Positions 1 to 32,000 of a DNA stretch of 32,000 nucleotides are shown piece by piece. Location: assembly GCA_004563595.2 (NCBI GenBank), contig CP042461.1, positions 450,001-482,000 on the forward strand. Reading direction: 5' to 3'. The stretch's first letter is position 1. Each line of letters begins with the position of its first letter. Source of the stretch: Candidatus Saccharimonadota bacterium. GTDB taxonomy: Bacteria; Patescibacteriota; Gracilibacteria; BD1-5; UBA6164. A program made the translations under genes and the position numbers. A model generated the notes under the pieces. That model saw only the letters and a program-made list of their open reading frames with translations. It had not been told where the DNA came from and ran no database searches.

Positions 1-659
1 ATATTGTGGTTTCTTTGATGTTATTGATAGTATTAACTGGGTGTTGAATATGAGATGATGCTAATAAAGAGGTATTTTGAGAGAATAAGATAGCTTCTTT
101 AAATCCTGTAGAAAATAATAAAAATGAAGAGATATTAGTACCCGTTAATTGTATTGATAATTTAACTCAAGAGTGAGTAGATGAACTAAATAGGGTATTA
201 AAAAGAACTTTTTCTATTGAAGGTTGGTGTAGCTTAACGGTATTAGATTTAAGAGATAAACAATTAAAAATTCTTCCTAAAGAGTTAGGGGGATTATCAA
301 ATTTAGGTTTTTTATATCTAGGAAGGAATCAATTAACAACCTTGCCAAGTGAGCTAAAAAACTTAACAAATTTAGTATTATTGGACGTATGGAAAAATCA
401 ATTTACAGAATTTCCTCATGTAATTTGAGAATTGAAGGGTTTAACTGTTTTAGGTTTAAGTCATAACCAATTATCGATACTTCCACAAGAGATACAGAAT
501 TTAAAAAATTTAGATTTTCTATATTTAGAGTGAAATAGTTGATTATTCCCATTGGATAAAAGCTTTGGTTTTAAATTTGAAAATGACGCAACTCAGTGAG
601 GCATGAGAATACGATATAATGAGGAAGTATGAAAAGTAGAGATTAGTATAATTGATTAA
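1..659 (+). CDS. Leucine-rich-repeat lipoprotein (5' end probably just upstream of the window)
   Basis: Frame 3 is open from nt 3 to TAA 657-659 with TGA=Gly. The N-terminal ...VVSLMLLIVLTGC has a lipobox (L-T-G-C, Cys codon 42-44). From about nt 240 there are tandem ~23-aa LxxLxLxxNxLxxLPxEIxxLxxL repeats (LRDKQLKILPKELGGLSNLGFLYLGRNQLTTLPSELKNLTNLVLLDVWKNQFTEFPHVIGELKGLTVLGLSHNQLSILPQEIQNLKNLDFLYLEGN). Confidence 0.8.
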
Positions 660-708
660 TGAGAAATATACTCTAAATATTATACTGTTGATGAGTAGGT
701 TCTAAAAA

Positions 709-748
709 AGTTCTTCAAATTGAAGGACTTTTTCTTTTGTTTTTTTTA
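709..748 (+). terminator. Rho-independent terminator after the LRR gene
   Basis: Hairpin agttcttca(709-717)/tgaaggact(721-729) with one G.U pair and a 3-nt loop, followed by a T-rich run ttttcttttgtttttttt. Confidence 0.6.
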
Positions 749-757
749 AGAAAAAGA

Positions 758-802
758 GTACAATTATTTGTACATAATAAATTACAAAATAATGTACATA
801 AT
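758..802 (+). promoter_or_regulatory. Putative promoter/operator of the toxin-antitoxin operon (GTAC-centred repeats)
   Basis: Palindrome gtacaa-ttat-ttgtac at 758-773. Direct repeat TGTACATAAT at 769-778 and 793-802, the second ending 1 nt before the antitoxin ATG (804). Type II antitoxins typically autoregulate through such operators. Confidence 0.35.
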
Positions 803-803
803 C

Positions 804-1079
804 ATGACTACAAAAATAATTAGTTTGAATGAGTATAGAAAAAATCTTTCTACTCTGTGGAAGCAATCAAGGGAAAATGATATTAAATATATTGTTATGG
901 TTCATTCAAAACCAGTTTTTGAGGTGAACCCTATCAAAGAAGATTATCTTGATGAAAATTGGGATACTATGTATACATCTGATAATCATAAAGCATACCT
1001 AAAAGCTCAAGAAGAATTAAAAAATTGAGAGACTGTTGACTGAAAAGAGTTTTTACTTGATTTAATAAAATCAAAATAG
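804..1079 (+). CDS. Type II antitoxin, Phd/YefM family
   Basis: 91 aa: MTTKIISLNEYRKNLSTLWKQSRENDIKYIVMVHSKPVFEVNPI... The N-terminus is typical of Phd/YefM. Two in-frame TGA (1026, 1041) read as Gly, with TAG stop at 1077-1079. The stop lies 1 nt before the toxin ATG. Upstream in-frame ATGs at 768 and 792 are possible but give a non-homologous extension. Confidence 0.75.
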
Positions 1080-1080
1080 C

Positions 1081-1338
1081 ATGTACAGATATAGTTTTTC
1101 AAAGGAGGTACAAAAATTTTTAAAAAATAGAGAATTAAAGTTTGTAGAAAAGGTATATATGAATTTCGAACTGTTATCGGTAGACCCGTTTGATAATAAT
1201 TTGGATATATAAAAACTGAAATGAAAAGGGAATAGTTATAGGTTAAGAATATGAAAATATAGGTTTTTATATGAGCTTATAGATCAGGAAATATTGATTT
1301 ATGTTCATGAGGCTGGATCAAGAGGAGATATTTATTAA
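1081..1338 (+). pseudogene. RelE/ParE-family toxin interrupted by an in-frame TAA at codon 44
   Basis: MYRYSFSKEVQKFLKNRELKFVEKVYMNFELLSVDPFDNNLDI*KLKGKGNSYRLRIGKYRFLYELIDQEILIYVHEAGSRGDIY. The RelE/StbE-like pattern (KLKG..YRLRIGKYR..Y..........GSRGDIY) continues in the same frame after TAA 1210-1212. This position is usually Lys (AAA). Confidence 0.7.
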
Positions 1339-1410
1339 AATATATACTTTTTTTGTCACCTTTTCTTAACTTATTCGTCTAAGTAAGTACAAGCCTTAAA
1401 AAAAATTAGT

Positions 1411-1450: not shown

Positions 1451-1468
1451 ATTGTCTTAAAATCATGT

Positions 1469-2662
1469 ATGATTTATGATGTTGTAATAGTTTGAGCATG
1501 AGCTGCTGGTTTATTTGCTTGAATAAGTCTTGATAAAAAATTAAAAAAAATAGTTTTAGAAAAAAATGAGAAGCCTTGAATAAAGGTTTTATTATCATGA
1601 TGAGAGAGGGCGAATGTTTCAAATATGGATATTGATCCAGAAAGGGACTATTTTACTCAAAACAAAAAATTTTTACTGAGTATATTTTCAAAGTATACAA
1701 ACTGGGATATTATGAGTTTTTTTTCTGAAAATTGAGTAAGTATAGTGGAGGAAGATAGATCGAGGTTGATTTTAGAAAGCTGAGATAGTAAAGAGTTGCT
1801 CGCTTGTTTATTGAAAAAGGTGAAAGAAAATAATTGTGATGTGAAGTGTGGGGATTGAGTGGAGAAGATAGAAAAAACTCCCCCTGTCCTAAAGGACATC
1901 CCCCTCCATGAGGGGGAACTTTGTTCTTACCCCCCTCATGGAGGGGGGATTAAGGGGGGAGTATTTACCATCACAACATCATCATGACAAAAATATCAAG
2001 CAAAAAATGTCATTGTTTCCTCTTGATGAAAGAGTTTTTCTCATGTTTGAACAACTGGAGATGGGTATAATTTTGCTGAAGAATTATGACTTGAAATTAT
2101 TCCACCTATGCCATGTTTATGTGGAATGACAACGAAAAAAGACCTCAAAGATATTTCATGAGTTTCTTGTAAATTACAAATGTATGTAAAAGATAAAAAA
2201 ACAAATAAGAATATTTATGAAGAAGTAGGTCCTATTTTATTTACTCATTTTTGAGTGAGTTGACCAATTATTCACAATACATCAGTTGTGTCAGGAGTAT
2301 ATTTAAATAGCTTAGGTATTTCTGAATCAGAATTTGAAATATATATGAAAGATAATATATGTTTAGAGCTTCATTTTGATCTAGAAAATCTTCCAAAAAG
2401 TATTATAAAATTTTTTGAATTGAGTGAAGAAAATAATATTATTGAACTTGATCTGCATTCATTTAGAAGTATGAAAGAGGCAAAAGCAACATCCGGTTGA
2501 GTCAGTACCAATGAGCTTGATAATAATATGCAATCAAAAAAACATGATAATTTGTATTTTATTGGTGAGGTAGTTGATGTGACTTGAAAAACTTGAGGTT
2601 TTAATCTCCAATGGGCTTGGTCAAGTTGATTTGTGGCTGCGAAGGATATAAATAGAAAATAA
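1469..2662 (+). CDS. NAD(P)/FAD-dependent oxidoreductase, HI0933/YhiN family
   Basis: 397 aa. N-terminal MIYDVVIVGAGAAGLFAG (both central Gly are TGA, 1493 and 1499). Also LLSGGERANVSN, VSSGGKSFSHVGTTGDGYNFAEELG, GPILFTHFGVSGP, and C-terminal LYFIGEVVDVTGKTGGFNLQWAWSSGFVAAKDI. TAA stop at 2660-2662. Confidence 0.85.
1878..1961. repeat. GC-rich nested palindromic element inserted in-frame in the flavoprotein gene
   Basis: ccccctccatgaggggg (1900-1916) and its exact reverse complement ccccctcatggaggggg (1931-1947), flanked by ctccccct (1878-1885) / aggggggag (1953-1961), plus an inner hairpin gtcct-aa-aggac (1887-1898). Each arm is itself a C5...G5 hairpin. It encodes about 28 extra aa (TPPVLKDIPLHEGELCSYPPHGGGIKGG) between conserved flavoprotein blocks. 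Confidence 0.8.
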
Positions 2663-2737
2663 AGAATTATAATTATTTGTTTTTTCCCTCAAATAATGCT
2701 ACCATTAACTTAATTATTTTTTTAATATCATAATATT

Positions 2738-5557
2738 ATGATTGATTTATTCATTAAGTTTTTTGAGTATATATTAAAGTATCTTAAAAAATCTAAAGAA
2801 AAAACTATAAGAGAGATTTCTAATACTGGTCCAGAGATTACTATAGTCAGTAAAAAATCAAAAGTTTTGATTATGGTATTGTGAATTTTATCACAATGAG
2901 CATTGTTATTTCTCGCTTCCATAATATTTATGGAGTCTGAGAATAATCTTCATTTTTTAATTCTATTATCGGTTATTCTATTAAGTATATGTATGATTTA
3001 TACTTTATATAAGACATTGAATAAAAAATATCTTTTTATGATTCATCTTCCTCTTATTGTAGGATTATTTTCAATAGGTATGTTCTTTTTCGATGATTTC
3101 CCATCAAGATATTTTTCAAAACATGATATTTTTAGTTCTGCTTTATTAATAGTATTCCCATTAATTTATATTTTAAAGTTAGGTTTTAAAAATATAAATA
3201 ATAGAAAGATAATTGATATTATTGAAAGATTATTTTATTTATATAATTTAGGATATTTTTTCTTCATAGCTCTTAATATAATTATCATATCTCTATGAAT
3301 TAATATCTCATTTTTTGCACCTTGGACGTATATTATTATAGAAATATTAGATCAAAACTATATCCATTGATTTTTCGAATGAATCATATATGTATGATTT
3401 TTATCTATATTTTTATTGTTTTGGGTATATGTGCTTCATGTTTATTATGATAATTATTGACAAAAAAGAATACATTTAAATAAATGAATATTAATTTTCT
3501 TGTCTGTATATCTACTAAGTTTTACTCCGAATTTGCTAGATATATTTTATGATTATCAAATATGAAAAGCAGAATCAATCATTGTTGAACAATGATATAA
3601 TTATGATTCTGATAACGCAGCAAAAGTACTTTTATTAGATAGGGCATTTTTAAGTAATATCAAACAAGGGAATAGAATAAATAATGACTTATTTAAAAAA
3701 ATATATGATACTACTCCTGCAAACTATTATGGTGATAGAGTAGCAAAATATATTACTAATAGATCAAGTTTTGAAACAAATCTTTCAAAAGTCTGAGATG
3801 CAGCTGATGTAATATTAGAGCTTGCAGAAATAGAAAATAGAGTTATTGAAACAAGTGGGACTTATAAAAAAACAGTTCTTGAAACTACATATATGTTTCA
3901 TTTTGAAAATGAAACAATAACTAATCAAGAAGTTATTTTAAATTTTGAATCTCCATCAAAATATTCTGTAGTATCAGGGTTGAAACTTGGTTTAGATCTA
4001 GAACTTATAGGACAAATTTCTCCGCGTTGAGCTGCGAGAAAAGTATATGAAAATAGTTTGAGAAGAAATACTGATCCAGCTTTAATAGAAAAAGTATGAC
4101 TGAATACTTATACTCTGAGAGTATTTCCGATTCCTTCTAAAAAAGTAAAACAATGAAAACAATTAGTAGAAGTAACGATGTTAACTCCTATTTCTGGTAA
4201 TGATTTCATATATTCACCAAAGTTTTCTATGACAAATTTGAAGTTTAATGAGGCATCAAATATGCTATCAAAAGTATATGTAAAAGGTCAACTTGTAAAA
4301 GAAGATATAATAAATAATAAAGAATTAGAAAAATATATATCAGTTGATCATTTAATTAGTGCATCAGAATTAAATTTTGATCCAAATATGAATGATGAAA
4401 TCATGTGCCTTTCTTCAACTTTAAATGATATTTTAACTAAAAATAAAATTGATATCACCTCAAAAAATGAGCTTTGAAGTAAAATAAATTTATTTTTTGA
4501 TAATTCATTAAGTGTAGAGAGGAATTCTGCAGATTATTTATATGATGAGATTTATAGTTGAATCAAAAAATATAATTGAAAATTAAACGATGTTGATCTA
4601 TATTCATATAATTTTGATGTTAATAAACTTGCAAGTATATCTGATATTAAATTTTGGGGATATTCCGAAATTGATAGAGTGATTAATTATATTTTGAATA
4701 ATAAAATACAAAATGAGAGAATAATTTTTGTTACTGATGATGATAATTTTAATTTTGGTGTTACTCAGTTACGTTTTGATTATATTAAAAAAATGACATC
4801 AAATAATATCTCAGTTATAAAAATATGAAAAAAAATAAAAACATATAAATCTGACTTCAACACACTTTTAGCTTCTACAAATTGAAATATTTATGAAGTG
4901 AATTCTATTAACGATATAGCTCCTACATTATCAAAAATATTTGAAGATTCAAATATAGAATATTTCAAATCATGTATTATTGAGAATAGAGATATAATCT
5001 CAAGTACCGGTTGAATAGATATTAATAATATTGAGGATCCTCTCAATGATATCGTAATAGATGAAAAGATAGAGAAAATCCAAGCATGAATTGTAGGAAA
5101 TTTATTATTTAAAAGTACTATAAATCCTGATATTTCACACTTTGTGGCATTTAATCAAACCATATTAGCAAAAAAATATAATATAGTGAATCAATATAAT
5201 TCTTTTATTGCATTGGAAAATTCATCACAACAAAAAGAATTAGATAGCTATAATAAACAAGAAAATAAATATGATGTAAAATACAAAAATTATTGATGAA
5301 AAGAAGTAACATGATTTAGTTGATGAGGTAGATGATTTAGTAATGAGAGTATTCAATCTAATTCTCTTAGCAATGTAAGCTTTGGTTCTGTAAGTGATTC
5401 ATCTCTAAGATGATCAATTCAAGGGTCATCATTTAGTAGTAATAGATATTCTTGAAGTACTTCCATTAGTATTGTTTGATTATTTATATTTATTATATAC
5501 TTATTAGAATATATCTGATTTATTAGTTTTATCATAAAATATATTAGGCAAAAATAG
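2738..5557 (+). CDS. Polytopic membrane protein with VIT and von Willebrand factor A domains and a C-terminal TM anchor
   Basis: 939 aa, one frame from ATG 2738 to TAG 5555-5557. The N-terminal ~260 aa are hydrophobic (several predicted TM helices). VIT-like block ...ISPRGAARKVYENSLRRNTDPALIEKVGLNTYTLRVFPIPSKK. vWA MIDAS-like FFDNSLSV (D at 4499, DxSxS) and RIIFVTDDDN strand. A G/S-rich linker is followed by IVGLFIFIIYLLEYIGFISFII-KYIRQK at the C-terminus. Confidence 0.7.
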
Positions 5558-9095: not shown

Positions 9096-10127
9096 ATGAA
9101 TTTATTACAAGTTTTTTTCATTATTTCGGGACTTATTATATTCTTTCTTGCTCTTGATATTGCAAGAAAACAGAAATTTAATGCACTACATTTTATAGTG
9201 TTCATTTTAATCTGACTCGGCTTACTTGTTTTTACAGTTTTTCCAGGAAGTTTAAATGGGATTTGAAGATTTTTTGGGCTTCAAAGATGAGCAGATCTGC
9301 TCGTGTATTCAAGTATAGTTTTTTTGATTTATTTTACCTTGTTACTGTTAAGGAAGGTAGAAGGGAACAATGAAGACTTAACAAAACTTATTAGAGAAAT
9401 AGCAGTAAAGTGATGAACAAGGGAAAAAATTCATGGGAAAGAAATATTTTTAATTCGTTCATTCAATGAAGCAACAGTAATTTCATCCACTATTCAATCT
9501 ATTTTTGATGCTTGATATAAAAATATATTAGTAATAAATGATGGTTCAACTGATAATACAAATACAGTAATTAAAAGAGATTTTTGAGATAAAGTAATTC
9601 TTCTCGAGCACTACAAAAACAGGTGAGCAGGAGCTGCTTTAGAGACTTGATTTGAATATGTACGTAGGTATGGAAAGGTCGATTATGTTATTTGTTTTGA
9701 TGCAGATTGACAACATAATGTATGAGATGTTAAAACTTTTGAAAGTTATCTAAAAGAACATAAAAAAGTTGATATTTTATTGTGATCAAGATTTTTAAAG
9801 AAAAAACAAGTAGGGATGCCTTTTGCTAGGAAAGTAATTTTAAAGCTAGGTATTCTTTTTACGGCAGTCCTGAGTAGTATAAAATTAACTGATGCACATA
9901 ATGGCTTTAGAGTAATAAAAACAGATGTATTAGATGATATTCATATAACAATTGATGGTATGGGATATGCTTCTGAATTGATAGATATTATCACACAAAA
10001 AAAACTCGTATACAAAGAGGTTCCTGTGAATGTGAAATATACCAAATACTCTCTTAGTAAAGGACAAAAAAATAGCAATGCAATAAATATAGCATTTAAG
10101 TTTATGTGGAGTAAATTTTTTAAATAA
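9096..10127 (+). CDS. DUF2304-like membrane domain fused to a family 2 glycosyltransferase (polyprenyl-phosphate sugar synthase-like)
   Basis: 343 aa. The N-terminal ~105 aa have three hydrophobic helices (VFFIISGLIIFFLAL, FIVFILIGLGLLVFTVF, LLVYSSIVFLIYFTLLLL). The GT2 core follows: IFLIRSFNEATVISSTI...ILVINDGSTDNT...GAGAALETG...VICFDADGQH...DAHNGFRV. Confidence 0.8.
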
Positions 10128-10133
10128 ATATAG

Positions 10134-11309
10134 ATGAGTAAAAAAAATATAGTCCAGTTCTTACCATATTTTCCCCCTCATAAATGATGACTAGAAACTC
10201 ATGCAGAACAGTGGGCGAAATGGTGGGTGAAAAAATGATTTTGAGAGGTCTTTAATATGATTACAAATTTTGATCAAAACTATAATGATAAAGAAAAAAT
10301 TGTATTTGAGTGAACTATTATTGGATATAGAGAAAAATGAGTTGAAAATTTGGTAGTACCATCTCTTGAAATCATCTCAAATTTCCCAGTTTATAAAGTA
10401 TGGAGCAGAGAATATAAAATAATCCTTAGGTATTTAAAATCAAAAAAAATAGGAATAGTTATCACAAGGACCAGGTTTTTTCTTACCACATTTATATGAT
10501 GAGTATTTTCACGAAAAAATAAGATTAGATGGTGTCATATTGAGCATGGATCAGACTATGTGAAATTAAATTCTGCTTTTAAGAGTGCTGTTGCGAAGAT
10601 CTATGATAAAATAATTTGAAAATGGATTTTCAAAAAAACTGATATAATTGTATGAGTGAGTAATGCTTGCAAGGACTTTATACGCAGAGAATTTACTGAG
10701 AGAAAAGTTGAGGTACTGTATAGGGGGGTGGATTTTCCAAAGATAAAAAACTATACTTTTCTTACAGAAAAATATAGCGATAAAATTATTGTTTGATTTG
10801 TTTGAAGATTATATAAGTGGAAAAATATAGAAACACTAATAGAAGCTTACAGATGATTAGATAAAGTATTAAAAAATAAAATACAGCTTGTTATTGTTTG
10901 AGATGGAGAGGACTTGGATAGGTTAATACAGTTGGACATAAAGAAGGATATTTATTTTACATGATGAAAATCTTTTGAAGAAGCTTTGGAATTACAAAGT
11001 CAGTTTGATATTCACTTTCATACATCGAGCCCTGGTTGAGGTTTGGCAACAACTCTTCTGCAAGCTATGAAGCTGTGATGCTTTATCATCGCTACTCCAT
11101 ACGAATGAGCAAATGAAGTTATTGTAGATGAAAAGAATTGAATTTTATTAAAAGATGATAGCTTGAAAGAAATACAAAGTAGTTTAATAAAATCTATTGA
11201 TATGTTAGAGAAAAAGAAAGATTTTGCTTCTGTAAATCAAGGAGTTATAAAGAATAAATTTAGGTGGGAAGTAAATATAGAGAAATATTATAAACTTTTT
11301 GATTATTAA
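10134..11309 (+). CDS. Glycosyltransferase family 4 (GT-B)
   Basis: 391 aa. N-terminal FLPYFPPHKGGLETH. C-terminal HTSSPGGGLATTLLQAMKLGCFIIATPYEGANEVIVDEKNGILL (EX7E-type motif). The frame was checked triplet by triplet with no TAA/TAG. Confidence 0.8.
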
Positions 11310-13205: not shown

Positions 13206-13208
13206 ATC

Positions 13209-15381: not shown

Positions 15382-15394
15382 TTTGAAATAATAG

Positions 15395-15976
15395 ATGAAC
15401 AGACTAGATGTCATTAAAGAACATATTAAATGAAAAGAAATATTAGACATTGGTTCTGCTTGATTTGAATCAGATAATTACTTTTTTAAATTTATCAGAG
15501 AAAATGCTTGAGATGTTGATGGCTTAGAACTAGATAATAAACTTGTGGAAAAATATAAGGAATATAATATAAAACAATGAAATGCTGAGACTTATATTTC
15601 AGAAAAAAAGTATGAGTTAATAATTGCTTGAGAATTAATTGAGCATCTATGAAATCCAGGGTGATTTTTTAAATGCTCACAAGAAAACTTGATCAAAAAT
15701 TGAACTCTTATTTTGACTACTCCGAATCCGTATTCCTTTCAAAATATATCAAGACATCTGTTTACATGAAAAGAAGCAAAGTGTAAGGAACATGTTACAT
15801 TATATAGTGAAATAACTATCAAAGAATTAGCTAATAGATATGGATTTAATTTATCTAAACTATATTTTGTACAGAGAGAAAAATTTTGATGAGTTAAATG
15901 ATGGGTAGAATATGTTACTTGAATATTATTTCCACATTTACGACCACGTATTATTTTTATATTTAATTTAAAATAA
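15395..15976 (+). CDS. Class I SAM-dependent methyltransferase
   Basis: 193 aa. Motif I KEILDIGSAGFE, acidic post-I DVDGLELD, and YELIIAGELIEHLGNPGGFF...NGTLILTTPN. Confidence 0.75.
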
Positions 15977-15985
15977 TTTATATAT

Positions 15986-16495: not shown

Positions 16496-16506
16496 TAAAA
16501 AAATAT

Positions 16507-17658: not shown

Positions 17659-17659
17659 T

Positions 17660-19827: not shown

Positions 19828-19830
19828 ATT

Positions 19831-20982
19831 ATGAAAATATTGATGACCTCAGAAACTTATTTTCCAATAATTTGATGAGCTGAATGGCATATTTATTATT
19901 TAAAAAAGAAATTAGAGGAACAAGGAATAGAAGTGATTTTATATACAACTACACCTTGAACATCAAAATTAGATTCTTTAAATATTATTAGAAATGAATT
20001 TGATAAAATTTCTTCATTTTTTTCTAACTTTAAGCAAATATTTACCCTATCTAAAGACGTTGATATTATACATTCTCATTATAGCTATAAATTAGCTTTG
20101 GTGTCATGACTTGTTTCAATTTTAAGAAGAAAACCATTTATAATAACGCAACATTGATTTTGACTTTTAGATCCTCAATATTCAACATGATTACTATTTA
20201 AAATTATATTTAAAACTTGTCGTTATTTTAGTATGAAAATTTCTGATAGGGTTATTTCTACAAGTGATGACTTAAAAGGCTTCTGTTTAAAGTATGTGAA
20301 TAAAAATAAAATTATTGATATAACTAATTGATATGATGATACTATTTTTAGATTATCAAATAATATAAATAAATCTATAACAAATTGACTGCCAACTTTT
20401 ATTACGATTAGAAGGTTTGCGAAAAAAAATTGAATACATATCTTAATTGATATATTGTCAGAATATAAAAAAAAGTACTGAGATTTTAAATATTATATGA
20501 TTTGATATTGAGCACTTGAAAAAGAAATTTTTTTAAGAATTAAGGAGTATTGATTAGAAAATAATATTATACATATAATGAATTCCGATCATAAAGAGCT
20601 TGTTGGTTATTTAAATAAATCTGATATAGTTTTTTTTCCTTCAAGTGCTGAATCAACGAGTTTAAGCTGTATTGAAGCCATGTGAATGAAAAAAATAATA
20701 GTTGCAAGTCGAGTGTGATGACTTATTCAACTTATTTGAAAAAATGAAGAGAGAGGTTATTTTTTAGACTTATATGACTGGACCTCATCAAATTATAACT
20801 GTCCTATGAAAATATCAGATGAAAAAATAATTTTGGCTGCAGATAATATAAGTAATATAATTGAATCAAAAAATGGTAATATAGAGAAAACTAATAATGC
20901 TTATGATTTCGTGAAGGCTAATTATACTTGGGATATTATAGCAAAAAAGACTATTATTTTATATAATGATTTGATTAAGTAA
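19831..20982 (+). CDS. Glycosyltransferase family 4
   Basis: 383 aa. MKILMTSETYFPIIGGAEWHIYYL; FITIRRFAKKNGIHILID; VFFPSSAESTSLSCIEAMGMKKIIVASRVGGLIQLI. Confidence 0.8.
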
Positions 20983-21914
20983 TGCTTTTTACAAGAAAAA
21001 AATATAAAGATATTGTATCAATTACTAATGAAGTATTTCATGATTTTGAAAATGCTACATATGATGATATTCACCCAGAAATATTTAACAAAGAGGAAGA
21101 ATCTATTTTAAAGCTGATATCTTTCATTAATAAAGATAGTTTTAAAAAATTTGATATATTAGATATTTGAACTTGAACCTGATTCATTCCAATGTGCCTT
21201 GAAAAAAATAATCTTAAATTTAAATCTTTCACTTGTTTTGATTGATCTAAAAAAAAATTAGATATTGTTAATTCTAAACTCAAGGATATTTGAACAAGTA
21301 GTAAGTATTATTCAAAAAAATTTCCTGAAGATTTGGAAGAAGTAAATTCTCATAAATATGACTTAATAACTATCAATTCTGTATTACATCATATGGTTGA
21401 TTATAAGGAAGTATTAAATTGATTATCAAGTAATGTTAAAAAAGGATGATTTCTATTAATTAATCATGAACCTAATAATAATTTTAATTATTCTATATGA
21501 TACTTTTTATATAAAATTTTAAATTATTTTGACATCAAATGAATATTATTATCAAATTTACACTCAAAAATATATTATTATTTAATTGATAAAATATGAA
21601 AAGATTTATCATGCAGTCCCTATTACCTAACAGCCAAATATTTGTATGAACATAAGTTAACAGATATCATATTGACCCCTACTCAAGTTAGTCAAATAGT
21701 TGATTATAATTCTCCTACATCTGGTTTATATTTTAATCCACACTATACTCTAGATTTAGATTTTTTATGAGAGTTATGATTCAAACAAGTATTTAAGATA
21801 GAAACAGATTTTTTATCAAAATTATCTTCTAAATATCCTAATTTAGAAAAATTAGTAAAGAAATTTAACTGAACTTGATCAATACAATGAGTTTTATTAT
21901 ATAAAAATAACTAA
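20982..21914 (+). CDS. Class I SAM-dependent methyltransferase
   Basis: 310 aa. Motif I FDILDIGTGTGFIP (both Gly of GTGTG are TGA), YDLITINSVLHHM, KKGGFLLINHEPN. The ATG shares one base with the upstream TAA (taatg). Confidence 0.72.
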
Positions 21915-21921
21915 CAATACG

Positions 21922-22725
21922 ATGAATAAGGAAAATTATAAAAATTATCATGATGAGATTAATGAAAAACGAATTCATTCATCATATCCGATAAGAGCAT
22001 ATGCGCATTTAAGACAATATGATTGTTTTATAGATAATATCCCAAGTGATGTAAAAACTGTTCTAGAAGCCTGATGTTGAGAGTGAACTTTAACAATCAG
22101 AATAGCGAAAAAATATCCTAATTTGAATATCAAAGCATTTGATATATGAGAAGAAAATATCAAATCAGCTAAATTATTAGCAAAAAAAGAGTGAATAAAA
22201 AATATAGAATTTTTTAATTGAGATGCAGAAAATATAGACTTCCCTGATAATTCTTTTGATTTAGTTGTGAGTTCTCATGTCTTGGAACACCTGCCTTCGT
22301 TTGATAAATGATTAAGTGAATTAAAAAGAGTATCAAAAAAACATGTTTTTTTTGCTGTGCCAACATGTTTAAACTTATCCTGTTTTTCTTTATTATGATA
22401 TGATAATTATTGGAAATTTTCTACTAGAAGTATTTTTTCATTGGGTGTTGGTTTTTGCAGAGTATTATTTTCGTTCATAACTTTTTCAGAGTGACCTGAT
22501 GAGTGATATTGACCAAATAAGGATATACATATATGGAGGTTTCCTTGGATAGTTAGAAAAAAAATAAAAAAATCTTGATTAAAATTAATTTCATATAAGG
22601 CTTCAAGTTTACTTTTTCCATATTTCCTCCTTTGACTCTCGAAAAAAATAGATGAAAGTTTTTCTGCTAAATCGTATTTTAGAGAATTTTGATTTTGAAC
22701 AACTTTTTATTGTAGGAAACAGTAA
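21922..22725 (+). CDS. Class I SAM-dependent methyltransferase (Methyltransf_11-like)
   Basis: 267 aa. VLEAGCGEGTLTIRIAKK, AFDIGEENI, FDLVVSSHVLEHLP. The C-terminal ~110 aa are partly hydrophobic and unassigned. Confidence 0.72.
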
Positions 22726-23976
22726 TTAACTTTTTCTTAATAAAAATATACTAAGCAGTAGTCATATTATTCTTGTTGTTATTCTTCATATTATTGCTCA
22801 AACAATTCAAAATAGCAATATTCATATTAAAGGCAATATTACTAATAATATTGGAAGTATCGTATTAAAAATATTTATAAATGTAGTTTTTCTTTTGGAA
22901 TTTAAATATGTTATTATTAAACTACTAGGAAAAGCAATAAAACTTAACATGAAAATCTGACTATATAATAAGGCTGACTCCAAATATCAAGGGTAAAATA
23001 ATTTAAAAATAAATGGAGCTAAAATTATATAGGTAATAATTAAAATAAAAGTAATGAAGAAGAACTTAGGGAGGTGTTTGTATATATCTTTTTTTGTAGT
23101 ATTTTGTTTTGTCAGTTTTGGTAAAAACATTTGAGATATAGGCCCCGTTATATTTTTGACTTGATCGGGTAAAAGTGTAGCAATAGTATAAATAGCTAAC
23201 TCTTCGAAACTGAGATAAGTTCATATGATTATCTTATCAAAATGATTTGCAATAATTAATGGGATCTGACCAAAGCTAATTTTTTTTCAAAAATTAATTA
23301 ACTCATTATTAGAAATATTATTTTTAAGATAATGTTTTGGTATTAAATAATAGCTATAATATCATCAAATGATGATATTTGATAACATAAAAGAAATTAT
23401 TGATATGGTTAGGTCTTTGGTAATATAAATAGATAATCAAGTAATTGTAAGTTGGAAAAGATGAAAAAAAGATTCATATTTTGCTTTTTTATTAAATAAT
23501 TCTTTTCAATTGAAGTAAAATATGAAGTAAGTAGATGTGGTATAAAATGGGAATAATAGTCAAATAAATAGAAAAATAAAACTAGCATACTCTCTTCAAT
23601 ATACGTAGGCATACAAACTTGCTATGATAAGTCATAGACTTCAAAGTAAACTATATTTAATAGCGAGCTTTATAGCTTGTTTGTAAGTCCCCTCTTGTTT
23701 TTTTACAATTCATTGAATAATAGATGAACTGAGTCATGGAAGTCAAGAAATTGCAAAAATTCAAATAACTCACATAATAAAACTCCATTGACCAAATTGT
23801 TCTTGAGTAAGGAACCTAGTAAGTAAAATACTTAAAGTAAAGAATTTAAATATAACTGCAAATTGACTTAGGTATAACCAAAATCAATTCTTCAAAAAAT
23901 ATGGTAAATCTAATCACCATTTTTTTCAGTAAGTTTCACTTAACTTATATATTTTACTTTGAAGGTTTTTAAGCAT
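22726..23976 (-). CDS. MOP-superfamily oligosaccharide flippase (Wzx-like)
   Basis: 416 aa, multi-pass and hydrophobic throughout. ...FAVIFKFFTLSILLTRFLTQEQFGQWSFIMGVIGIFAI... and ...FEELAIYTIATLLPDQVKNITGPISQMFLPKL... The frame was checked for TAA/TAG. Its stop codon abuts the stop of the convergent methyltransferase (taa|tta). Confidence 0.7.
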
Positions 23977-23977
23977 T

Positions 23978-24934
23978 TTAGATCTTATAATATTCTTTAT
24001 ACCAATTCACAAATTTTTCAATAGTATCTTCAATCTTTATTTTTGGTTCCCAATTGAGAGTCTTTTTGGTATGTTCTATATCTGCCCAAGTAGATTTTAC
24101 GTCTCCATCTTGCATTCAAACATAGTTTCTTTTGGCTTTGATTCAGGTATGTTTTTCAAGTAAACTAATCATAGTTTCTAGTTGAGTTGGAGTATCGTTT
24201 CACAAGTTGAATATTTCATATTTTGATATTGTATGGAGACTCTTTATTACTCAATCAACTATGTCATCTATATCAGTGAAATCTCTCTCCATCTTTCAAT
24301 GATTATAGATATCTATAGGTTTTCATTCAAATATGGATTTCGTAAATTTGAAATATGCCATATCAGGTCTCCCATATGGTCATTGTACTGTGAAAAATCT
24401 GAGTCATGTTGTTGGAAGTTCAAACAGATGCGAATACGTATGAGCTATAAGTTCATTTGATTTTTTAGTAGCAGCATATAAAGAAATAGGGTTATCAACA
24501 GGATCTTCTACTGAAAAAGGTTGTTTTTCATTTTTTCAATAGACACTGGAGCTTGATGCATATACAAAATTTTTCACCGTATACTCTTTGGCTAGTTGAA
24601 TTATATTTTGAAATCATACTAAGTTTGATTTTATATATGCTTTTGGATTTTCTATACTATATCTTACTCATGCTTGAGCAGCTAAATTACAAACCTTATC
24701 TATTTTATGTTGCTTAAAAACTTCTTCTAATTCTTCTGAGTTACTTAAGTCTCATTTATAAAATATGAAATTTTCATAAGTTTTTAGTATATTTCTTCTT
24801 GATATTTTTAGGTCAACGTCATAGTAGTCATTCTCGCTATCAAATCATATTATTTTAGCTCAGTTTTCTAATAATTTTTTGGCTAAATGAAATCATATAA
24901 ATCAGCTCGTTCATGTTATTAAGATGGTTTCCAT
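23978..24934 (-). CDS. NAD-dependent epimerase/dehydratase, UDP-glucuronate 4-epimerase-like
   Basis: 318 aa. ILITGTSGFIGFHL (Rossmann), [18 protein letters not shown] (YxxxK), and [21 protein letters not shown]...[10 protein letters not shown], typical of the Cap1J/GAE group. The stop lies 1 nt before the downstream flippase ATG. Confidence 0.82.
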
Positions 24935-24978
24935 TATTTGAAGTTCATTATAAATAATTTATTACATTTAGTATACTT

Positions 24979-25022
24979 TAAAAAAATAAAATTCAAGCAA
25001 TTGCTTGAATTTTATTTTTTTA
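24979..25022. terminator. 44-nt perfect palindrome / bidirectional terminator downstream of ugd
   Basis: ttaaaaaaataaaattcaagcaa|ttgcttgaattttattttttta is self-complementary across 24979-25022. The core stem is aattcaagc/gcttgaatt, with A-run and T-run flanks. Its right end overlaps the ugd stop codon (25020-25022). Confidence 0.6.
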
Positions 25023-26339
25023 TCTTCATATCGATGAGTAATCAAATCATAATTTTTCCATTTCTTCTTTTCTCCATAAATTTCTTCCATCAATTATAAC
25101 ATTCCCATTCATTAATGATTTCATTTTCTCAAAATTTGGAATTCTAAATTCATCCCATTCTGTGAGAACGATAAGAGCATCAGATTCATTTAAAACGTCA
25201 TAGTAATTCTCTCAGAATGTAATTACATTATTTCAATTATATTCTTTTCTCATATGACTCATTGCTACAGGATCAAAAGCTTTGATTTCTTTTACTCAGA
25301 GTTCAAGGAGCTTATTAATAACATCGATACTAGGAGCTTCTCTAATATCATCAGTCTTTGGCTTGAATGAAAGTCACCATATAGAAATAGTTTTTCATTC
25401 GAGGCTATCAATTTTTTCTAACACTTTGTCTATTACTTTTGTTTTTTGTAGTTTGTTTACTTCTTCAGTTGCTTTAATTATTTTGAAATCATAATTGTAC
25501 TCTTTTCATGTTTCAATTAATGCTTGTACATCTTTTGGAAAACAGCTTCATCCGTATCATATACCTGCTTGTAAAAATCTATGTCCAATTCTATCATCAA
25601 GTCATATTCATTTACTGATATCTCAAATATTTGCTCATACTATCTCAGCAAAGTTCGCTATTTCATTGATAAAACTTATTTTTGTTGCTAAAAATGCATT
25701 TGCTGCATATTTAATTATTTCAGATGATTTTAAGTCTGTGAAAATAAGAGGTCTATCAGTTCTAATAAAAGGTTTATATATTTCTTTCATTATTTCCTTT
25801 GCTTTTTCTGACTCTAGTCAGCATACAATTCTATCAGGCCCCATGAAGTCTCTTATAGCCATTCATTCTTTTAAAAATTCAGGATTTGAAACTATATCTA
25901 TTTTTACCTGAGCAGATCTTTTTTTGATTTCTTCTGATATAATATCTTTACATAACTTACCCGTTCATACGGGAACCGTAGATTTATTTATAAAAACTTT
26001 ATAATCACTGACATTTTCTCATACAGTTTGTGCTACGGCTTTTACAAATCTAAGATCAGCTTTGTGATTTTCATCTGGAGGAGTTCATACTGCACTAAAA
26101 ATAGCTTTTCAAAATGCTATTCATTTTTTTGCATCAGTAGAAAAGACTAATCTTCATTCTTTATGATTTCTGAGAACTAGTTCCTCTAAACCGGGTTCAT
26201 AAATAGGAATAATTCATTTCTCTAAATTATCGATTTTATTTTGGTCTATGTCTATACACATAACTTCATGTCATACCTCAGCCAGACATGTTCCAGTTAC
26301 AAGTCATACATATCAAGTTCAGAAAACTGTTATTTTCAT
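25020..26339 (-). CDS. ugd: UDP-glucose 6-dehydrogenase
   Basis: 439 aa. [26 protein letters not shown] (all three Gly of GTGYVG are TGA), AVGTPPDE, NPEFLKEG, GIGYGGSCFPKDV (catalytic Cys), [14 protein letters not shown]. The frame was checked triplet by triplet. Confidence 0.93.
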
Positions 26340-27847
26340 TTTCTTAATTTTTTAATTTCTAATGTAAAATTTTTAACTTTATCTCAATTTAATATTCAGA
26401 ATAATCAGAACCAAAGCAAACTAAATATAATCATATATAATATACTGAGTCATCTTCATATTCATTCGAATATTGGTAGGACTCAATAATATGCAAAAAC
26501 ACTAAAAAATCATATAAAAAATAAATTCTTTGTTAAAAACTTTATGTCATAGTTTATAAAGTATTTTTTTCATAGATATATTTCAGACATTCACCATATT
26601 ATTATCCATCATATTCAAGTGGCTAGTGCAGCTCACTCTACTCATATCGTTTTTAAGAATATCAAATTAAGAGTAAAGTTTATGATTATAGCTATGCTTA
26701 TAATTTTTACTCTTGCCGTTACTTTTCATATTCAAGCGAGTATGTTGAAGTTAATCTGAAGTAAAAAATTAAAAATAAGAAATAAAATAGAATACTGCAA
26801 TATATTTCATGATATTTTATAATTTTCTCAAAAGAGAATAAAGGTAATGACATGTGCAAAAATAAAAAACAACGCATTAAAAGTAAATCAAATAACAATA
26901 AAATTATTCGAAAGAAGTCACTTTATTTTTTTAATTCAATCTATTTTATTTTTAGAATGTAGATCTGAAAATACTGGCATTAATAAAGCAAATATTGGTC
27001 ATAATAATAGAAATGGAATTCATATAATACTGAGATATACAGTATAGAGTCATACCTCTTTTGTTCAGAGAAGATAAATAATCATCTGCATATCAATTTG
27101 ACTGAGTATGGTTGCTGCTTGTGCTCACATAAAGACAAGCAGAGCATATTTTATTACTGTTTTAAAGAGTTTCTTATCAAAAGAAATTGGTATTTTTTTT
27201 AAATATACCTTATAAAATTTATTATAAAATATACTTATTCATGCTATAAGTCAGAATCATAATCATACAATCCACATGTATGAGAAATACTCTAAGCTTG
27301 TTTTATTTAGGAATATTAATAGAAAAGTAAAGAGTAGGGAAGATACCAATCGTATTAAATCTATTATTTTTGAATAATAGGTGTTTTGAATAGCTAGAAA
27401 AAAGGTGGTGATAATCTGGAAAAAGTTTATTCATATAAAAAAGATACAAAAAATCTGGATAGTTTGAACGGCTTCAACATTATGAAAATAACCTACTGCA
27501 ATATTATTCGAGAATATATAAAGTAGGCTTGCAATAATTGTACTTGAAATAGTTTGTATAGAAATACTATAAAATAATATATTTTTTATTTTCCCATAAT
27601 TTCATTCATTTAAAAATCTTGGAATAAAATACTTTAAACTTTCAGTTATTCAAAAATCATTAAATGCTCCTATAAGAGTTACTAAACTGATGATTCAGTA
27701 AATGATTCATATCTCTTCTACACTTAATTCTCAAGTTAATATAATCTTTATTATATATCAGATTGGTGCAATAATATAGCTCAGTAAATAGAGCCAAAAT
27801 GTATTGGTCAAAAATTTTTCAGAGAGTGTTTTGTGTTGCTCAGTCAT
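26330..27847 (-). CDS. MOP-superfamily polysaccharide flippase (second copy; Wzx/polysaccharide biosynthesis protein type)
   Basis: 505 aa, about 12-14 hydrophobic segments. TNTFWLYLLSYIIAPIGYIIKIILTGELSVEEIGIIYGIISL..., LLVFMGAQAATILSQIDMQMIIYLLG, GVEGAALATGIGWIIIW. Its 3' end overlaps the ugd start by 10 nt. An alternative start is at 27862. Confidence 0.75.
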
Positions 27848-27995
27848 TGAGTGAAAAATCATAAATATTACAAACCTTGATTATGCCTTCAAGTGTAACT
27901 TTTTTAACATATTTTTCAAAAGTTTTCTTTACAAATCTGATAAATTCTTACACTATTTTTAATAACATGAATATTATTTATTAAATTTTAAAAAA

Positions 27996-30900
27996 ATGGT
28001 GAGTTATTTATTAAAAATTTTTATCCTCGTTCTCTTCTCTTTTTTTATAATCTCATCTTTCTATTGAGTCACAGCTCATCAAGAAAATTTTGATTGATAT
28101 ATGTCTTATATAGCTATTATATCAGTGATTTATAGTATTTATAAATACTTGCAAGTTGAATTCTCTGTAGATAATAAAGCTATTTTTACACCATTTAAAA
28201 TATTTTGATTCTTTTGTCTTCATTTACTCGTTCTTTGTAGTCTCTTCTTTGTATTTAATGGAGTCTCATTTATAAGCTGATTCGGTTTAATTCTAAAAAT
28301 ACTATTCTTTAGCTTATTACCTATTTTCATAATTCTCACATCAATTTCATTTTGAAAAAAGATAATTTCATTTTTTCCAGAATTTTCGAAAGAATCAGAT
28401 ATATTTCAATTTATAATTTCTCTCTGACTTTGATTCTTCTCATTTCTTTTCTTACTCAGCATAATTGGAATGTTTTGATTCTATCATATGTGAGCAGTTT
28501 TTCTTATCTTAGGATTATTTCTAATATTTTCATATAAACAATTCAACTCTTTGGCTGACGGTTTTTTTAATTATAGAATAGAACTAGATATAAAAGAATG
28601 AATGTATCTGAAGCTTATTTCAGCTGAATTCTTATTCCTTGTGTCTACGTTACTCTTATCAGTAAATTTAATTAGTATTGTAAGACCTTTTCCAATTGGT
28701 TGGGATGATTTATGAGCATATATGAACCTACCACATCTCTTAGCAGAAGGTTGAAGTATGATATCTTTTTGATGAATGTACTCATGGCAAATGTTTACAG
28801 GGATTTGATATATGTTCAACTCTCCAGTGCAAGCATTTTACCTGAATAATGTAGGATGATTCATGTCTTTCATTATCTTAGTTCTTATTACATCAGATTT
28901 ACTGAAAAGTAAGCTAAAAAAGACATATATAAATATACCTATGTTAGTAGGAACTTTGTTTATTGCTTTACCTATGGTTGTTTTTCAACAAGCAAAGGAT
29001 ATGAAACTTGATATTGGTTTATTCTTTGTCAGTATCATCAGTATATATTTATTATATAAGTACATATTAAAAGAGACTAATAAGACTTTATGAACAAAAA
29101 TAAAAGAAAAAATATCTCAAATCCCTTCTTCTTTTAAAAAAGGAACTATTGAAATACCTCATGATTTATTATTTATTTGAATAATTTGAATTTTAGCTTG
29201 ATTTGCTTTTACCATTAAATTCACATCACTTTTACTTATATCTGCATTATTTTGAGTTCTGTTTTTTAGTAGACTTTGAATGACTTGATTTTTGTGATAT
29301 TTGTTTTTATATTTTTCAATATTTACAAAAGGAGGGCTTTGGTCAATGATGAATGTAGTGTATCCAAAAGAAAATATAGAGTTTATAAATATATTTTCAA
29401 TTATATCACTTGTAGTTTGAATTGCATTTTTAGTGTTTTCTATTCGTAAGAATACAACAAATTTTAAAAAATTACTTTTAGAGTTGGGAGTGTTTTTACT
29501 CGGAACATTTATTTCCCTTTCTCCTTGGCTTTCTAAAAATATCTATAGCTCATATCCAGATATATCAATATCATATATACTGAATGGAAACTCAGTTTCA
29601 TTTGAAAAAGATTATTTAAAATTGTACTCTGAGACTGATTTAAAAGTAATTAAGGATAATATATCAAAGGCTATACAAAGTGATGATTCCGTAAGAATTG
29701 GAGAAGATTATTGAAGGTATTTTGGTTATGAAAAAGGTATCAATAATTATGTTAAGCTTCCTTGGAATCTTACTATGCAATCAAATCAGTGATGAGAATT
29801 TACAGGAATTAGTTACTTATTTTTAGCTCTTTTACCTATAATATTTTTATTCTTACCGTTTAAAAATAGATATTTTGCTTTTTGAGTATTAGCCATGCTT
29901 TTATTGGAATTACTTATTTATGTTATTCCCTCATCAAGGATATTCTTCACGTACCTATTTTCTCAGTTCTCACTTCCATGAGGATACAGTATAATATTAG
30001 CAGTATTTTTAGTCCCTCTTATTTACTTTGTTCTTACATTAAAAGATACAACGAAAAATACCTTATTTAAAATGAACTTAGTATTTGCTTCATTTTATAC
30101 TTTTCTTTGGACTATATCAGCATTTGGAATTGTTTGGTACGGAATCACCATGTATTTCAATTTCTTATTAATGATTGCTATAGGTTTGTACTATCTGTCA
30201 TGTTACAAAGAAACTGATAGCGAAAAAGAAAAGCAAGTAAAAATGTTTGGATCAATTATAGCATTTTTAATTATAGTTATATATATATTTAATTCAGTTT
30301 TTCCTCATAGTTTTAACAATTTGAAATCTGCTTCCTATAAAGAATACAAGCTTGGTGATCTCACAACAGCTGAAGCATCATACCTATACCATCCAGAGTA
30401 TTTACCAATTCTTTTTGAGTTGAATATTGCTGAAGATAAAAGAAAGGACTTCATAAAAAGTAAATTAAAACCCTCTACTATTATTGGCGTAAAATGAATT
30501 GAAGACTTTGATATAGTAACATTGACTCAAATCTTGAGACAATTATCAAATTTAAAAAACGAATTATCAAATGATGCATATAGTTCATTACAAGATATAT
30601 ATTCTGGTATCTCAAATCCAAAAGAAGAATTCAAAAATAAAAAATGAATTTATAGAATAGGAACTTTTCTTAAATACCATATATCTGAAAATAATGTAAG
30701 ATTATTAGAGGATTCTCTTGTAACACAATTTGATAATTATATTTATACTTGAAATATTGATACTACAGTTGATAACATTAAGAAACTTTGACTTTGATAC
30801 CTACTGGTAGATTTAAATGCTCCAACTATTGATAGAGATCCTCGTCACGCTTTAACAACAAGGTATGAGAAGTTGTTGAGTATTTTTACTTCAGAAAATC

Positions 30901-31256
30901 TAGAGTTAGTAGAAACAGATAGCATATGTTTGAAAATTGCACTTGAATCTTATGGTAATTCAGAGAAACAGAGCAAAGACTTAACTCGTTATTATAATTT
31001 GGCTTGAGTGAACTATGAAAGCTATACAGATGAATGAAAAATAGTAAGGAGATGAGATAAACAAATTTTATGTTATAGTTATATATATAGACTTATAGCG
31101 GAAGATAAAGTAGATAGTAATAATTATTCATATTTATTAGGACTTAAAGCTCTAATAGATATGAATAAAGATACATTAAATAATGATAATGCTATTTTAC
31201 AATTTCTACACTCAAAAATACCTGCAGGGTATAAAGTTTTATTTAAAGTGAAATAA
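27996..31256 (+). CDS. Giant integral membrane protein, GT-C-fold glycosyltransferase-like (PMT_2/ArnT-like module) with N-terminal TM extension and C-terminal soluble domain
   Basis: 1086 aa in one frame (checked triplet by triplet), with many predicted TM helices. The loop after the 7th helix reads VRPFPIGWDDLGAYMNLPHLLAEGG, matching the acidic D-[DE]-x3-Y...L..G first-loop signature of GT-C enzymes. The last ~250 aa are hydrophilic (IEDFDIVTLTQILRQL...LVDLNAPTIDRDPRHALTTRYEKLL...). Confidence 0.6.
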
Positions 31257-31289
31257 AAAAAACTCTCAAATTATTTGAGAGTTTTTTTT
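31255..31289. terminator. Perfect palindromic bidirectional terminator shared by convergent genes
   Basis: aaaaaaaactctcaaa (31255-31270) tta tttgagagtttttttt (31274-31289): 16-nt perfect arms. The left arm begins inside the TAA of the GT-C gene (31254-31256). The 3-nt loop tta is the TAA stop (minus strand) of the riboflavin kinase fusion gene. Confidence 0.7.
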
Positions 31290-32000
31290 ATTATTGATGA
31301 CTTGTATTGATCTTCTTTATATGGTTGGATTCTAATTATTTCTGTTTTTAACTTCTTTTCTTTGATGTACTCAGTCAGTTCACTTGAAAATCAGACTTGA
31401 TCATATCAGAGACATACCACTTTTGGGTTGTAAAGTTTTAGCCACAACATAGGATGCCCTCATTGTCATAAATATACACAGTCTGAAATTCATAAATCAT
31501 GGATATCTTTTACTCTTTCTTTTTCACTACGAATAGGAGTCTTTCCTTTAAACTTAATTACATTTGCGTCTGTTGCCACTATAGTAATAAGTACATTTCA
31601 GTATTTTTTTGATTCTTCCAAAAAATATCTATGTCATGGATGGACTAGATCATATGTACCAAAAGTTAAAACATAATCTTTATGCCTTTTTACGAGTTCT
31701 ACATCTTTTTGTATTTGAGCTCTTAATTCATCTGTTGAATTAAATTTTTTATTTTCTCGTAGTTTCTTTAGAAGAACGATATCAACCTCTTTGCCATATA
31801 TGTCTTTGTTAAAGTCTATGATATAAGATTCAAATGTTCATTTTGCTTTTAAATATGCTCATACTCATAAGTATGTATTATACTCTCAAGAGTCTCCAGA
31901 TTTATAAATGATCACATTCACTTTGTAGGTTCATTCCTCTACATGCGAATCAAGTAATTCAATATTTGCTGTTGGAAATCATAATTTCCTTCCAAGTGAT
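31271..32000 (-). CDS. Riboflavin kinase domain fused to a C-terminal RibL-like (archaeal-type FAD synthetase) nucleotidyltransferase domain; 5' end outside the window
   Basis: Minus frame is open from 31999 to TAA (31273-31271). RFK part: SLGRKLGFPTANIELLDSHVEEGTYKVNV...GVGAYLKAKGTFESYIIDFNKDIYGKEVDIVLLKKLRENKKFNSTDELRAQIQKDVE. Nucleotidyltransferase part: YVLTFGTYDLVHPGH (HPGH at 31631-31642) RYFLEESKKYGNVLITIVATDANVIKFKGKTPIRSEKERV...PKVVCLGYDQ...EIIRIQPYKEDQYKSS. Confidence 0.8.

Follow-up and report, generated by a model that had tools for sequence, protein, structure and literature searches.

According to our analysis, the window (the whole 32,000-nucleotide stretch of DNA considered here) is almost certainly part of the closed chromosome of the BD1-5 bacterium Candidatus Gracilibacteria bacterium 28_42_T64 and is written in code 25, which reads UGA as a regular codon for glycine and keeps just UAA and UAG as stops. 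Both the observation made in the initial annotation and its interpretation are correct. The case is an ordinary one, already described and already known: the UGA-as-glycine code of 28_42_T64 was published and deposited in 2019, with the genes of the genome called using code 25 (Sieber et al., 2019, mBio; PMC6851277; CP042461).

The origin of the DNA was established from the translated proteins. Ten of the eleven glycine-translated proteins that were looked up are letter-for-letter identical to GenBank proteins in the range QFR39016.1–QFR39036.1. The identical proteins are those of Candidatus Gracilibacteria bacterium 28_42_T64, a member of the Patescibacteria group (NCBI taxid 1862133), which bears out the earlier placement of the sequence in a BD1-5/SR1-like lineage of the CPR. 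The published genome, CP042461, is a closed chromosome of 1,343,103 bp, and its reported GC content is 28.87% (PMC6851277). A Logan contig assembled independently, from run SRR3580189, overlaps the window by 7,008 bp without a single mismatch.

The genes of the window are intact solely with TGA as a sense codon. With TGA as sense, 98% of the window lies in stop-to-stop ORFs of 100 aa or longer; the corresponding coverage is 17% under the standard code, 66% if TAA is made a sense codon and 22% if TAG is. The longest standard-code ORF is indeed, as first noted, one of 161 aa (13697–14182, minus strand), antisense to a GT4 glycosyltransferase gene (13209–14387, plus strand, 20 TGA). Our gene model, a non-redundant set, comprises 25 long genes covering 96.3% of the window, which agrees with the previous figure of 27 long ORFs over about 97%, since the count of 27 is reached by adding two short toxin–antitoxin-like ORFs in 660–1399. 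The first of these, a Phd/YefM-like antitoxin ORF (804–1079, plus strand), has 2 TGA, ends in TAG and gives a weak Pfam match below the gathering cut-off. The second, a ParE/RelE-like toxin ORF (1081–1338, plus strand, 2 TGA), contains an in-frame TAA at 1210–1212 that is spanned by a weak Pfam match, and is probably a pseudogene. A second reassignment suggested by this TAA was rejected, given 25 long genes free of internal in-frame TAA.

The claim that only TAA and TAG terminate genes also holds: in all 25 long genes in-frame TAA and TAG are confined to the gene ends, with TAA as the terminator in 23 and TAG in 2. This bears on the possibility of an ambiguous UGA, read mostly as glycine but still ending translation in certain genes or contexts, which we regard as very improbable. 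The GT4 glycosyltransferase gene at 17660–18757 (plus strand, 22 TGA versus 1 GGN) has two TGA among its last three sense codons, but the window gives the ambiguous reading no support anywhere, and none of the 25 genes needs a TGA terminator, although TGA ranks seventh in frequency among the in-frame codons. The product of prfB is the sole release factor that reads UGA. In the 28_42_T64 genome prfB was not detected and prfA is present (PMC6851277), which also argues against residual termination at UGA.

TGA is spread over all of the long genes. The window opens with a leucine-rich-repeat protein (18–659, plus strand; 9 TGA, 10 GGN and a TAA end; LRR_8, E 1e-13), and a VIT-domain membrane protein annotated as hypothetical (QFR39017.1; 2738–5557, plus strand) has 31 TGA. 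A Sua5/YciO/YrdC family protein (QFR39018.1; 5581–6153, minus strand) has 5 TGA and 1 GGN. The following genes lie on the plus strand: a DUF2304 plus family-2 glycosyltransferase gene (9096–10127, 12 TGA), a GT4 glycosyltransferase (QFR39022.1; 10134–11309, 20 TGA), a group-1 glycosyltransferase (14377–15381, 12 TGA), a methyltransferase (15395–15976, 13 TGA), a hexapeptide-repeat acyltransferase (15986–16495, 13 TGA), two further GT4 glycosyltransferases (16507–17658, 15 TGA; 19831–20982, 18 TGA) and two further methyltransferases (20982–21914 and 21922–22725, 15 TGA each). Genes for a polysaccharide biosynthesis protein of the Wzx flippase type (22726–23976, 25 TGA) and for a flippase-like polysaccharide biosynthesis membrane protein (26330–27862, 38 TGA and 3 GGN) are on the minus strand. 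They are followed by a multi-pass membrane protein, about 1,086 aa long and without a Pfam match (27996–31256 with a predicted start, plus strand, 38 TGA), and by a flavokinase plus cytidylyltransferase-like gene represented by its 3' part (31271–31999, minus strand, 13 TGA), with the N-terminus encoded outside the window.

To identify the amino acid, TGA was kept untranslated (X) and five proteins were aligned to solved structures from standard-code organisms. Glycine stands at 72 of the 100 aligned TGA positions (P ~6e-58 against a 7.5% background) and tryptophan at 1, so that the column residues, to which the initial annotation had pointed as a check, are mostly glycine. Glycine was matched by 22 of the 27 TGA in the UDP-glucose 6-dehydrogenase Ugd (QFR39036.1; 25020–26339, minus strand; Burkholderia BceC, 2y0e), 16 of the 25 in the RecG helicase (QFR39020.1; 7014–9035, plus strand; Thermotoga RecG, 1gm5), 14 of the 17 in the NAD-dependent sugar epimerase/dehydratase of the SDR type (QFR39035.1; 23978–24934, minus strand; 5u4q) and 10 of the 14 in the UDP-GlcNAc 2-epimerase WecB (QFR39030.1; 18745–19827, plus strand; 4neq). 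The asparagine synthase AsnB (QFR39023.1; 11310–13205, plus strand) has 31 TGA, and glycine was found at 10 of the 17 that were aligned. In the same alignments GGN fell on glycine at 27 of 38 positions and TGG on tryptophan at 4 of 9. The 28 TGA positions that lie off glycine are put down to ordinary divergence, because GGN misses glycine at the same rate (29%); the rate at which TGA falls on conserved glycines equals that of GGN.

The individual motifs agree with these counts, and the positions named earlier proved exact. TGA occurs at 7878 and 7887 in the Walker A motif of RecG (E-G-D-V-G-T-G), at 1493 and 1499 in the V-G-A-G-A-A-G fold of the HI0933-like FAD-binding protein (QFR39016.1; 1469–2662, plus strand, 21 TGA) and at 11316 in the M-C-G of AsnB. 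It encodes all three glycines of G-T-G-Y-V-G in Ugd and occurs three times in D-L-G-T-G-G-G of the 16S rRNA methyltransferase RsmG (QFR39019.1; 6163–6855, minus strand, 9 TGA). Glycine makes up an impossible 2.0% of residues if TGA is left out and a normal 6.7% if it is included. Composition and alignment counts thus agree that UGA is glycine, neither tryptophan nor a stop. TGG remains the tryptophan codon: it is used in NLQWAWSS (start at 2603), and where the Ugd homologues are aligned, tryptophan accounts for 349 of the 357 residues in TGG columns.

Neither the window nor the 4.3 kb beyond it on the Logan contig contains tRNA genes, and an Rfam search of the window returned no RNA family and no SECIS. 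Evidence on the decoding tRNA comes from related genomes, in which a nearly invariant tRNA(UCA) of 79 nt was found at at least 24 loci among the matches listed; the tRNA-Gly(UCA) pattern scan covered species-representative genomes, and 28_42_T64 is not among the matches listed. At 24 loci this tRNA has the glycine identity elements G1-C72, C2-G71, G3-C70 and U73, together with an encoded CCA. In the relatives, a gene for a conserved 110-aa protein neighbours the tRNA(UCA); a 28_42_T64 copy of this protein is absent among the best 120 of 524 matches.

Code 4, the code of Mycoplasmatales and several insect endosymbionts, with UGA as tryptophan, is somewhat less probable even than an ambiguous UGA, and on sequence evidence the alignment counts have already refuted it. 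It gives an ORF structure identical to that of code 25, many public pipelines have translated these genes in this way, and of the 119 Ugd homologues that are closest, 108 have tryptophan in the TGA columns. Nevertheless, tryptophan in these database homologues is an artefact of the translation table used. Code 4 would raise tryptophan to 5.3% of residues and leave glycine at its low value, and would turn invariant catalytic glycines into tryptophan in the Walker A motif, the Rossmann G-x-G-x-x-G and the Cys-Gly of AsnB. The systems using table 4, which include Mycoplasmatales, Entomoplasmatales, Hodgkinia, Zinderia, Nasuia and others, resemble the one described here in the codon captured, the AT-rich reduced genomes, the loss of RF2 and the UCA-anticodon tRNA. 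They differ in the amino acid, as seen both in the alignments and in the glycine, not tryptophan, acceptor-stem and discriminator identity set of the relatives' tRNA(UCA).

The biology being established, the importance of glycine decoding here is practical only. The warning that annotations of this contig may be wrong was well founded: JGI/IMG, Logan and ENA hold the same genes in code 4, with tryptophan at every TGA. Annotation of the CP042461 contig with table 11 gives no genes, and table 4 makes about 4.6% of residues wrong by turning glycine into tryptophan. The same mistake is common in public collections of proteins, as both the Ugd homologues and the JGI, Logan and ENA copies of the 28_42_T64 genes indicate.

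The standard code, with the DNA decayed, non-coding or mis-assembled or with UGA as selenocysteine, has a negligible probability and is already refuted: it would account for table 11 yielding no ORF above 161 aa, but reading through TGA gives 25 well-conserved full-length proteins (E down to 1e-133 against solved structures), the independent assembly has the identical sequence, and the 478 in-frame UGA are found in every gene and at glycine positions, whereas selenocysteine recoding involves rare UGA at redox-active Cys/Sec positions with a SECIS element per site.

Glycine decoding of UGA is also reflected in codon usage. The 25 genes contain 478 TGA (4.6% of codons, 463 per 10,000), 210 GGN and 68 TGG in frame, so that TGA is, as proposed, the main glycine codon (69% of glycine codons); the hand count for recG of 25 TGA and 16 GGN was reproduced. 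Across 25 sequences the TGA share of glycine codons is correlated with GC content (Spearman -0.90), and the window lies on the trend; since the share tracks GC, 69% is expected for a genome of this clade with 26% GC. High TGA use in code-25 bacteria has already been noted (PMC10746230). As a mechanism, the loss of prfB (release factor 2) reported for 28_42_T64 would free UGA from termination (Sieber et al., 2019), and a dedicated tRNA-Gly whose anticodon is UCA, as the tRNA of 24 related genomes suggests, would decode it. AT-biased mutation at 26% GC would then favour TGA over GGN and may explain why TGA is the majority glycine codon.

Table 25, the code of SR1/Absconditabacteria and Gracilibacteria, reportedly goes back to the work of Campbell and colleagues (2013), Rinke and colleagues (2013) and Hanke and colleagues (2014); the change of UGA to glycine through tRNA-Gly(UCA) after RF2 loss is said to have been first shown in these groups in 2013–2014. 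We see no difference between table 25 and the window. Both have UGA at conserved glycines and only UAA and UAG as stops, the table 25 genomes and 28_42_T64 alike are small, low in GC and belong to the CPR, and the TGA share is as GC predicts. Loss of RF2 is known from the literature and tRNA-Gly(UCA) from relatives, 28_42_T64 itself being a published example. Proteomics of the clade gave 97 unique peptides for UGA as glycine, 3 for tryptophan and 0 for a stop (PMC4032931), and among 15 Gracilibacteria species, Codetta inferred UGA as glycine in 13 (PMC8629427).

Codetta has also predicted CGA/CGG as tryptophan in Absconditabacteria and CGG as tryptophan in some Gracilibacteria (Shulgina and Eddy, 2021). 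That system belongs to the same clade, and CGN is strongly depleted in the window, where CGG is found at 0 of 10,331 in-frame codons versus 55 AGG and 11 CGA; CGG is also absent from the loci of 9 of 9 relatives below 31% GC. We hold it possible, though rather unlikely, that CGG has been fully driven from use and is either unassigned or reassigned to tryptophan as predicted for those Gracilibacteria. The window differs from the predicted CGA reassignment in that its CGA still looks like an arginine codon, encoding the arginine of the GTRPE motif of WecB (18775).

Under the standard bacterial code, the longest ORF of the 32-kb window has 161 aa (13697-14182, minus strand) and lies antisense to a glycosyltransferase gene, as the initial annotation had pointed out. 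When stop-to-stop ORFs with a length of 100 aa or more were counted, coverage of the window was 17% with the standard code, 98% with TGA as a sense codon, 66% with TAA as sense and 22% with TAG as sense. The non-redundant gene model comprises 25 long genes occupying 96.3% of the window; the sole sizeable gap (660-1399) contains two short ORFs, which gives the total of 27 ORFs reported initially. All 25 genes terminate with TAA (n = 23) or TAG (n = 2), and none of them contains an internal in-frame TAA or TAG, in agreement with the earlier proposal that these two codons alone end genes. An ambiguous UGA, read both as glycine and as a stop, finds no support: no gene in the window needs TGA as its terminator, and RF2 has been reported as absent.

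The 25 genes contain 478 in-frame TGA, 210 GGN and 68 TGG codons. TGA ranks seventh among codons by use and represents 69% of the presumed glycine codons, so that it is the main glycine codon, as had been suggested from recG, where the hand count of 25 TGA against 16 GGN proved exact. Glycine makes up 2.0% of residues without TGA and 6.7% with TGA counted as glycine. In a neutral test, TGA was written as X and five proteins were aligned to solved structures of standard-code organisms. TGA fell on glycine at 22 of 27 positions in UDP-glucose 6-dehydrogenase (Ugd; Burkholderia BceC, 2y0e), 16 of 25 in RecG (Thermotoga, 1gm5), 10 of 14 in UDP-GlcNAc 2-epimerase (WecB; 4neq), 14 of 17 in the NAD-dependent sugar epimerase/dehydratase (SDR epimerase; 5u4q) and 10 of 17 in asparagine synthase (AsnB; E. 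coli, 1ct9). Overall, 72 of 100 TGA positions matched glycine and one matched tryptophan, with the remainder scattered; the probability of this glycine count against a 7.5% glycine background is ~6e-58. Since GGN codons fell on glycine at 27 of 38 positions in the same alignments, TGA behaves exactly like a glycine codon, and TGG aligned to tryptophan. The individual sites named in the initial annotation were also located correctly: the TGA codons of the RecG Walker A motif (7878 and 7887), of the FAD dinucleotide-binding motif (1493 and 1499) and of the M-C-G motif of AsnB (11316), together with its example of TGG-encoded tryptophan (NLQWAWSS, starting at 2603).

In the window, UGA is a sense codon that stands for glycine, and translation ends at UAA and UAG. 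Reading UGA as tryptophan (code 4) yields the same ORFs as code 25 but is contradicted by these alignment counts, by the resulting composition (5.3% tryptophan with glycine left at 2.0%) and by the identity elements of the tRNA(UCA) of the clade. A pseudogene region is excluded by the 25 well-conserved full-length proteins, a mis-assembly by an identical independent assembly (Logan, run SRR3580189; 0 mismatches over 7,008 bp) and selenocysteine by the frequency of UGA, which accounts for 4.6% of codons.

The database searches led to the same reading. The Ugd match QFR39036.1 was identical at every residue, with glycine at all 27 X positions, and nine of ten further glycine-translated proteins were exact GenBank entries (range QFR39016.1-QFR39035.1) whose accession order follows the gene order of the window. 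These entries belong to “Candidatus Gracilibacteria bacterium 28_42_T64” (NCBI taxid 1862133, Patescibacteria group), and the lineage assigned from the sequence was therefore correct. Its genome, CP042461 (1.343 Mb, 28.87% GC), was the first closed genome of Gracilibacteria; genes were predicted using Prodigal with code 25, 33 tRNA genes were found, and prfA was present while prfB was undetected (Sieber et al., 2019; PMC6851277). In another BD1-5 bacterium, proteomics gave 97 unique peptides with UGA as glycine, three with tryptophan and none with a stop (PMC4032931), and Codetta assigned UGA to glycine in 13 of 15 species of Gracilibacteria and in all six of Absconditabacteria (PMC8629427). 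The window is a textbook case of translation table 25, and its source genome is one of the published reference genomes of that table. Both the observation and the interpretation of the initial annotation were correct and carefully argued; they were already known and contain nothing new.

No tRNA genes were found in the window or in the 4.3 kb beyond it (Logan contig L001). Species-representative genomes were scanned for a tRNA-Gly-like 3' half with the anticodon UCA, which gave at least 120 rows, and ARAGORN was run on 25 of them, from records named Gracilibacteria, Patescibacteria, Peribacteria or “uncultured bacterium.” A 79-nt tRNA(UCA), almost invariant across 19-53% GC, was present in 24 of these 25 loci (L051, L056, L068, L070, L075, L083, L091, L092, L100, L104, L110, L113, L131, L132, L134, L138, L143, L147, L148, L156, L157, L159, L164 and L167). 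It carries the glycine identity elements G1-C72, C2-G71, G3-C70 and U73 together with an encoded CCA (consensus GCGRGGGTAACATAAAAGAGTGAGTGTACTAAGGCTTCAACCCTTGGGTGT...CGCTCCA). Its cloverleaf is backed by five covarying pairs, its D-loop has 10 nt, and its anticodon stem, which includes one covarying pair, is predicted to have 6 bp. It is the tRNA-Gly(UCA) that would be expected in this clade. By analogy with the relatives, such a tRNA would be present in CP042461 and decode UGA there; according to the literature, RF2 has been lost from this genome.

In several loci, tRNA-Gly(GCC) and/or tRNA-Arg(GCG) come after tRNA(UCA). Two conserved genes flank it in many Gracilibacteria, e.g., in L083 (tRNA at 1375-1453; neighbors at 1566-1907, plus strand, and 498-1256, minus strand). 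One encodes a 110-aa basic protein (MANSHGL...GLDFYGMPR) with 80-95% identity across the clade, 524 relatives and no matching Pfam family; the other encodes a membrane protein of ~240 aa with the C-terminal end ILESFRK. A tRNA(UCA) whose acceptor end is glycine-like (CGC-U) also occurs in seven IMG/VR viral contigs, in three of them within large tRNA arrays (L007, 480-552; L017, 1261-1332; L024, 7794-7867; L033, 8270-8342; L036, 8278-8350; L041, 2538-2614; L045, 1229-1305). These may be code-25 phages or phages with a UGA suppressor tRNA.

Across 24 related loci and the window, the proportion of glycine codons that are TGA declines as GC content rises (Spearman -0.90, P ~1e-9), from 85% at 19.5% GC to 6% at 46-53% GC. 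The window, with 69% at 26% GC, lies on this trend, and its preference for TGA is not unusual; high TGA use in code-25 bacteria has already been noted (PMC10746230). The dependence looks driven by mutational bias: once the codon was available, AT-biased mutation would favor TGA over GGN.

The absence of CGG is the sole loose end on the genetic code. This codon does not occur among the 10,331 in-frame codons of the 25 genes, which include 192 AGA, 55 AGG and 11 CGA, and none of the nine relatives with a GC content under 31% has it in its locus. For some Gracilibacteria, Codetta predicted CGG as tryptophan (PMC8629427). CGA in the window still looks like arginine, as the codon at 18775 corresponds to the conserved arginine of the WecB GTRPE motif.

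The practical value of these results concerns public collections, which hold the genes of the source genome, and most genes related to them, in a table 4 translation, with tryptophan for glycine. In JGI/IMG, Logan and ENA, the source genome's genes have tryptophan at every TGA (P0121, its Ugd copy, P0124, P0126 and others). Of the 119 nearest homologues of Ugd in the public protein collection (P0002-P0120), 108 have at least three tryptophans at glycine (TGA) columns; therefore, most public translations of the clade are systematically wrong at glycine.

The two short ORFs, both on the plus strand, resemble a Phd/YefM-like antitoxin (804-1079) and a ParE/RelE-like toxin (1081-1338), with weak Pfam matches (E ~1e-3) below the gathering cut-off. 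The toxin is probably inactivated, because an in-frame TAA (1210-1212) interrupts its frame. The synthesis and export of a surface glycan appear to be the role of a 19-kb cluster (9096-27862). Its products are eight glycosyltransferases, of which six have GT4 domains, one is group-1 only and one is GT2, as well as AsnB, WecB, Ugd, the SDR epimerase, three methyltransferases, an acetyltransferase and two Wzx-type flippases. This cluster is plausibly among the polysaccharide-synthesis genes mentioned for CP042461 (Sieber et al., 2019; PMC6851277). The cluster is bordered by a gene for a multi-pass membrane protein of ~1,086 aa (27996-31256, plus strand) with no Pfam match; this protein and another large membrane protein (939 aa; 2738-5557, plus strand), with a VIT domain as the sole domain match, are poorly characterized. 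Finally, a minus-strand gene at 31271-31999, continued in L001 at 4302-5069, encodes a 255-aa protein in which a flavokinase domain precedes a cytidylyltransferase-like one, opposite to the order in bacterial RibF, and adjoins the genes for riboflavin synthase and lumazine synthase.
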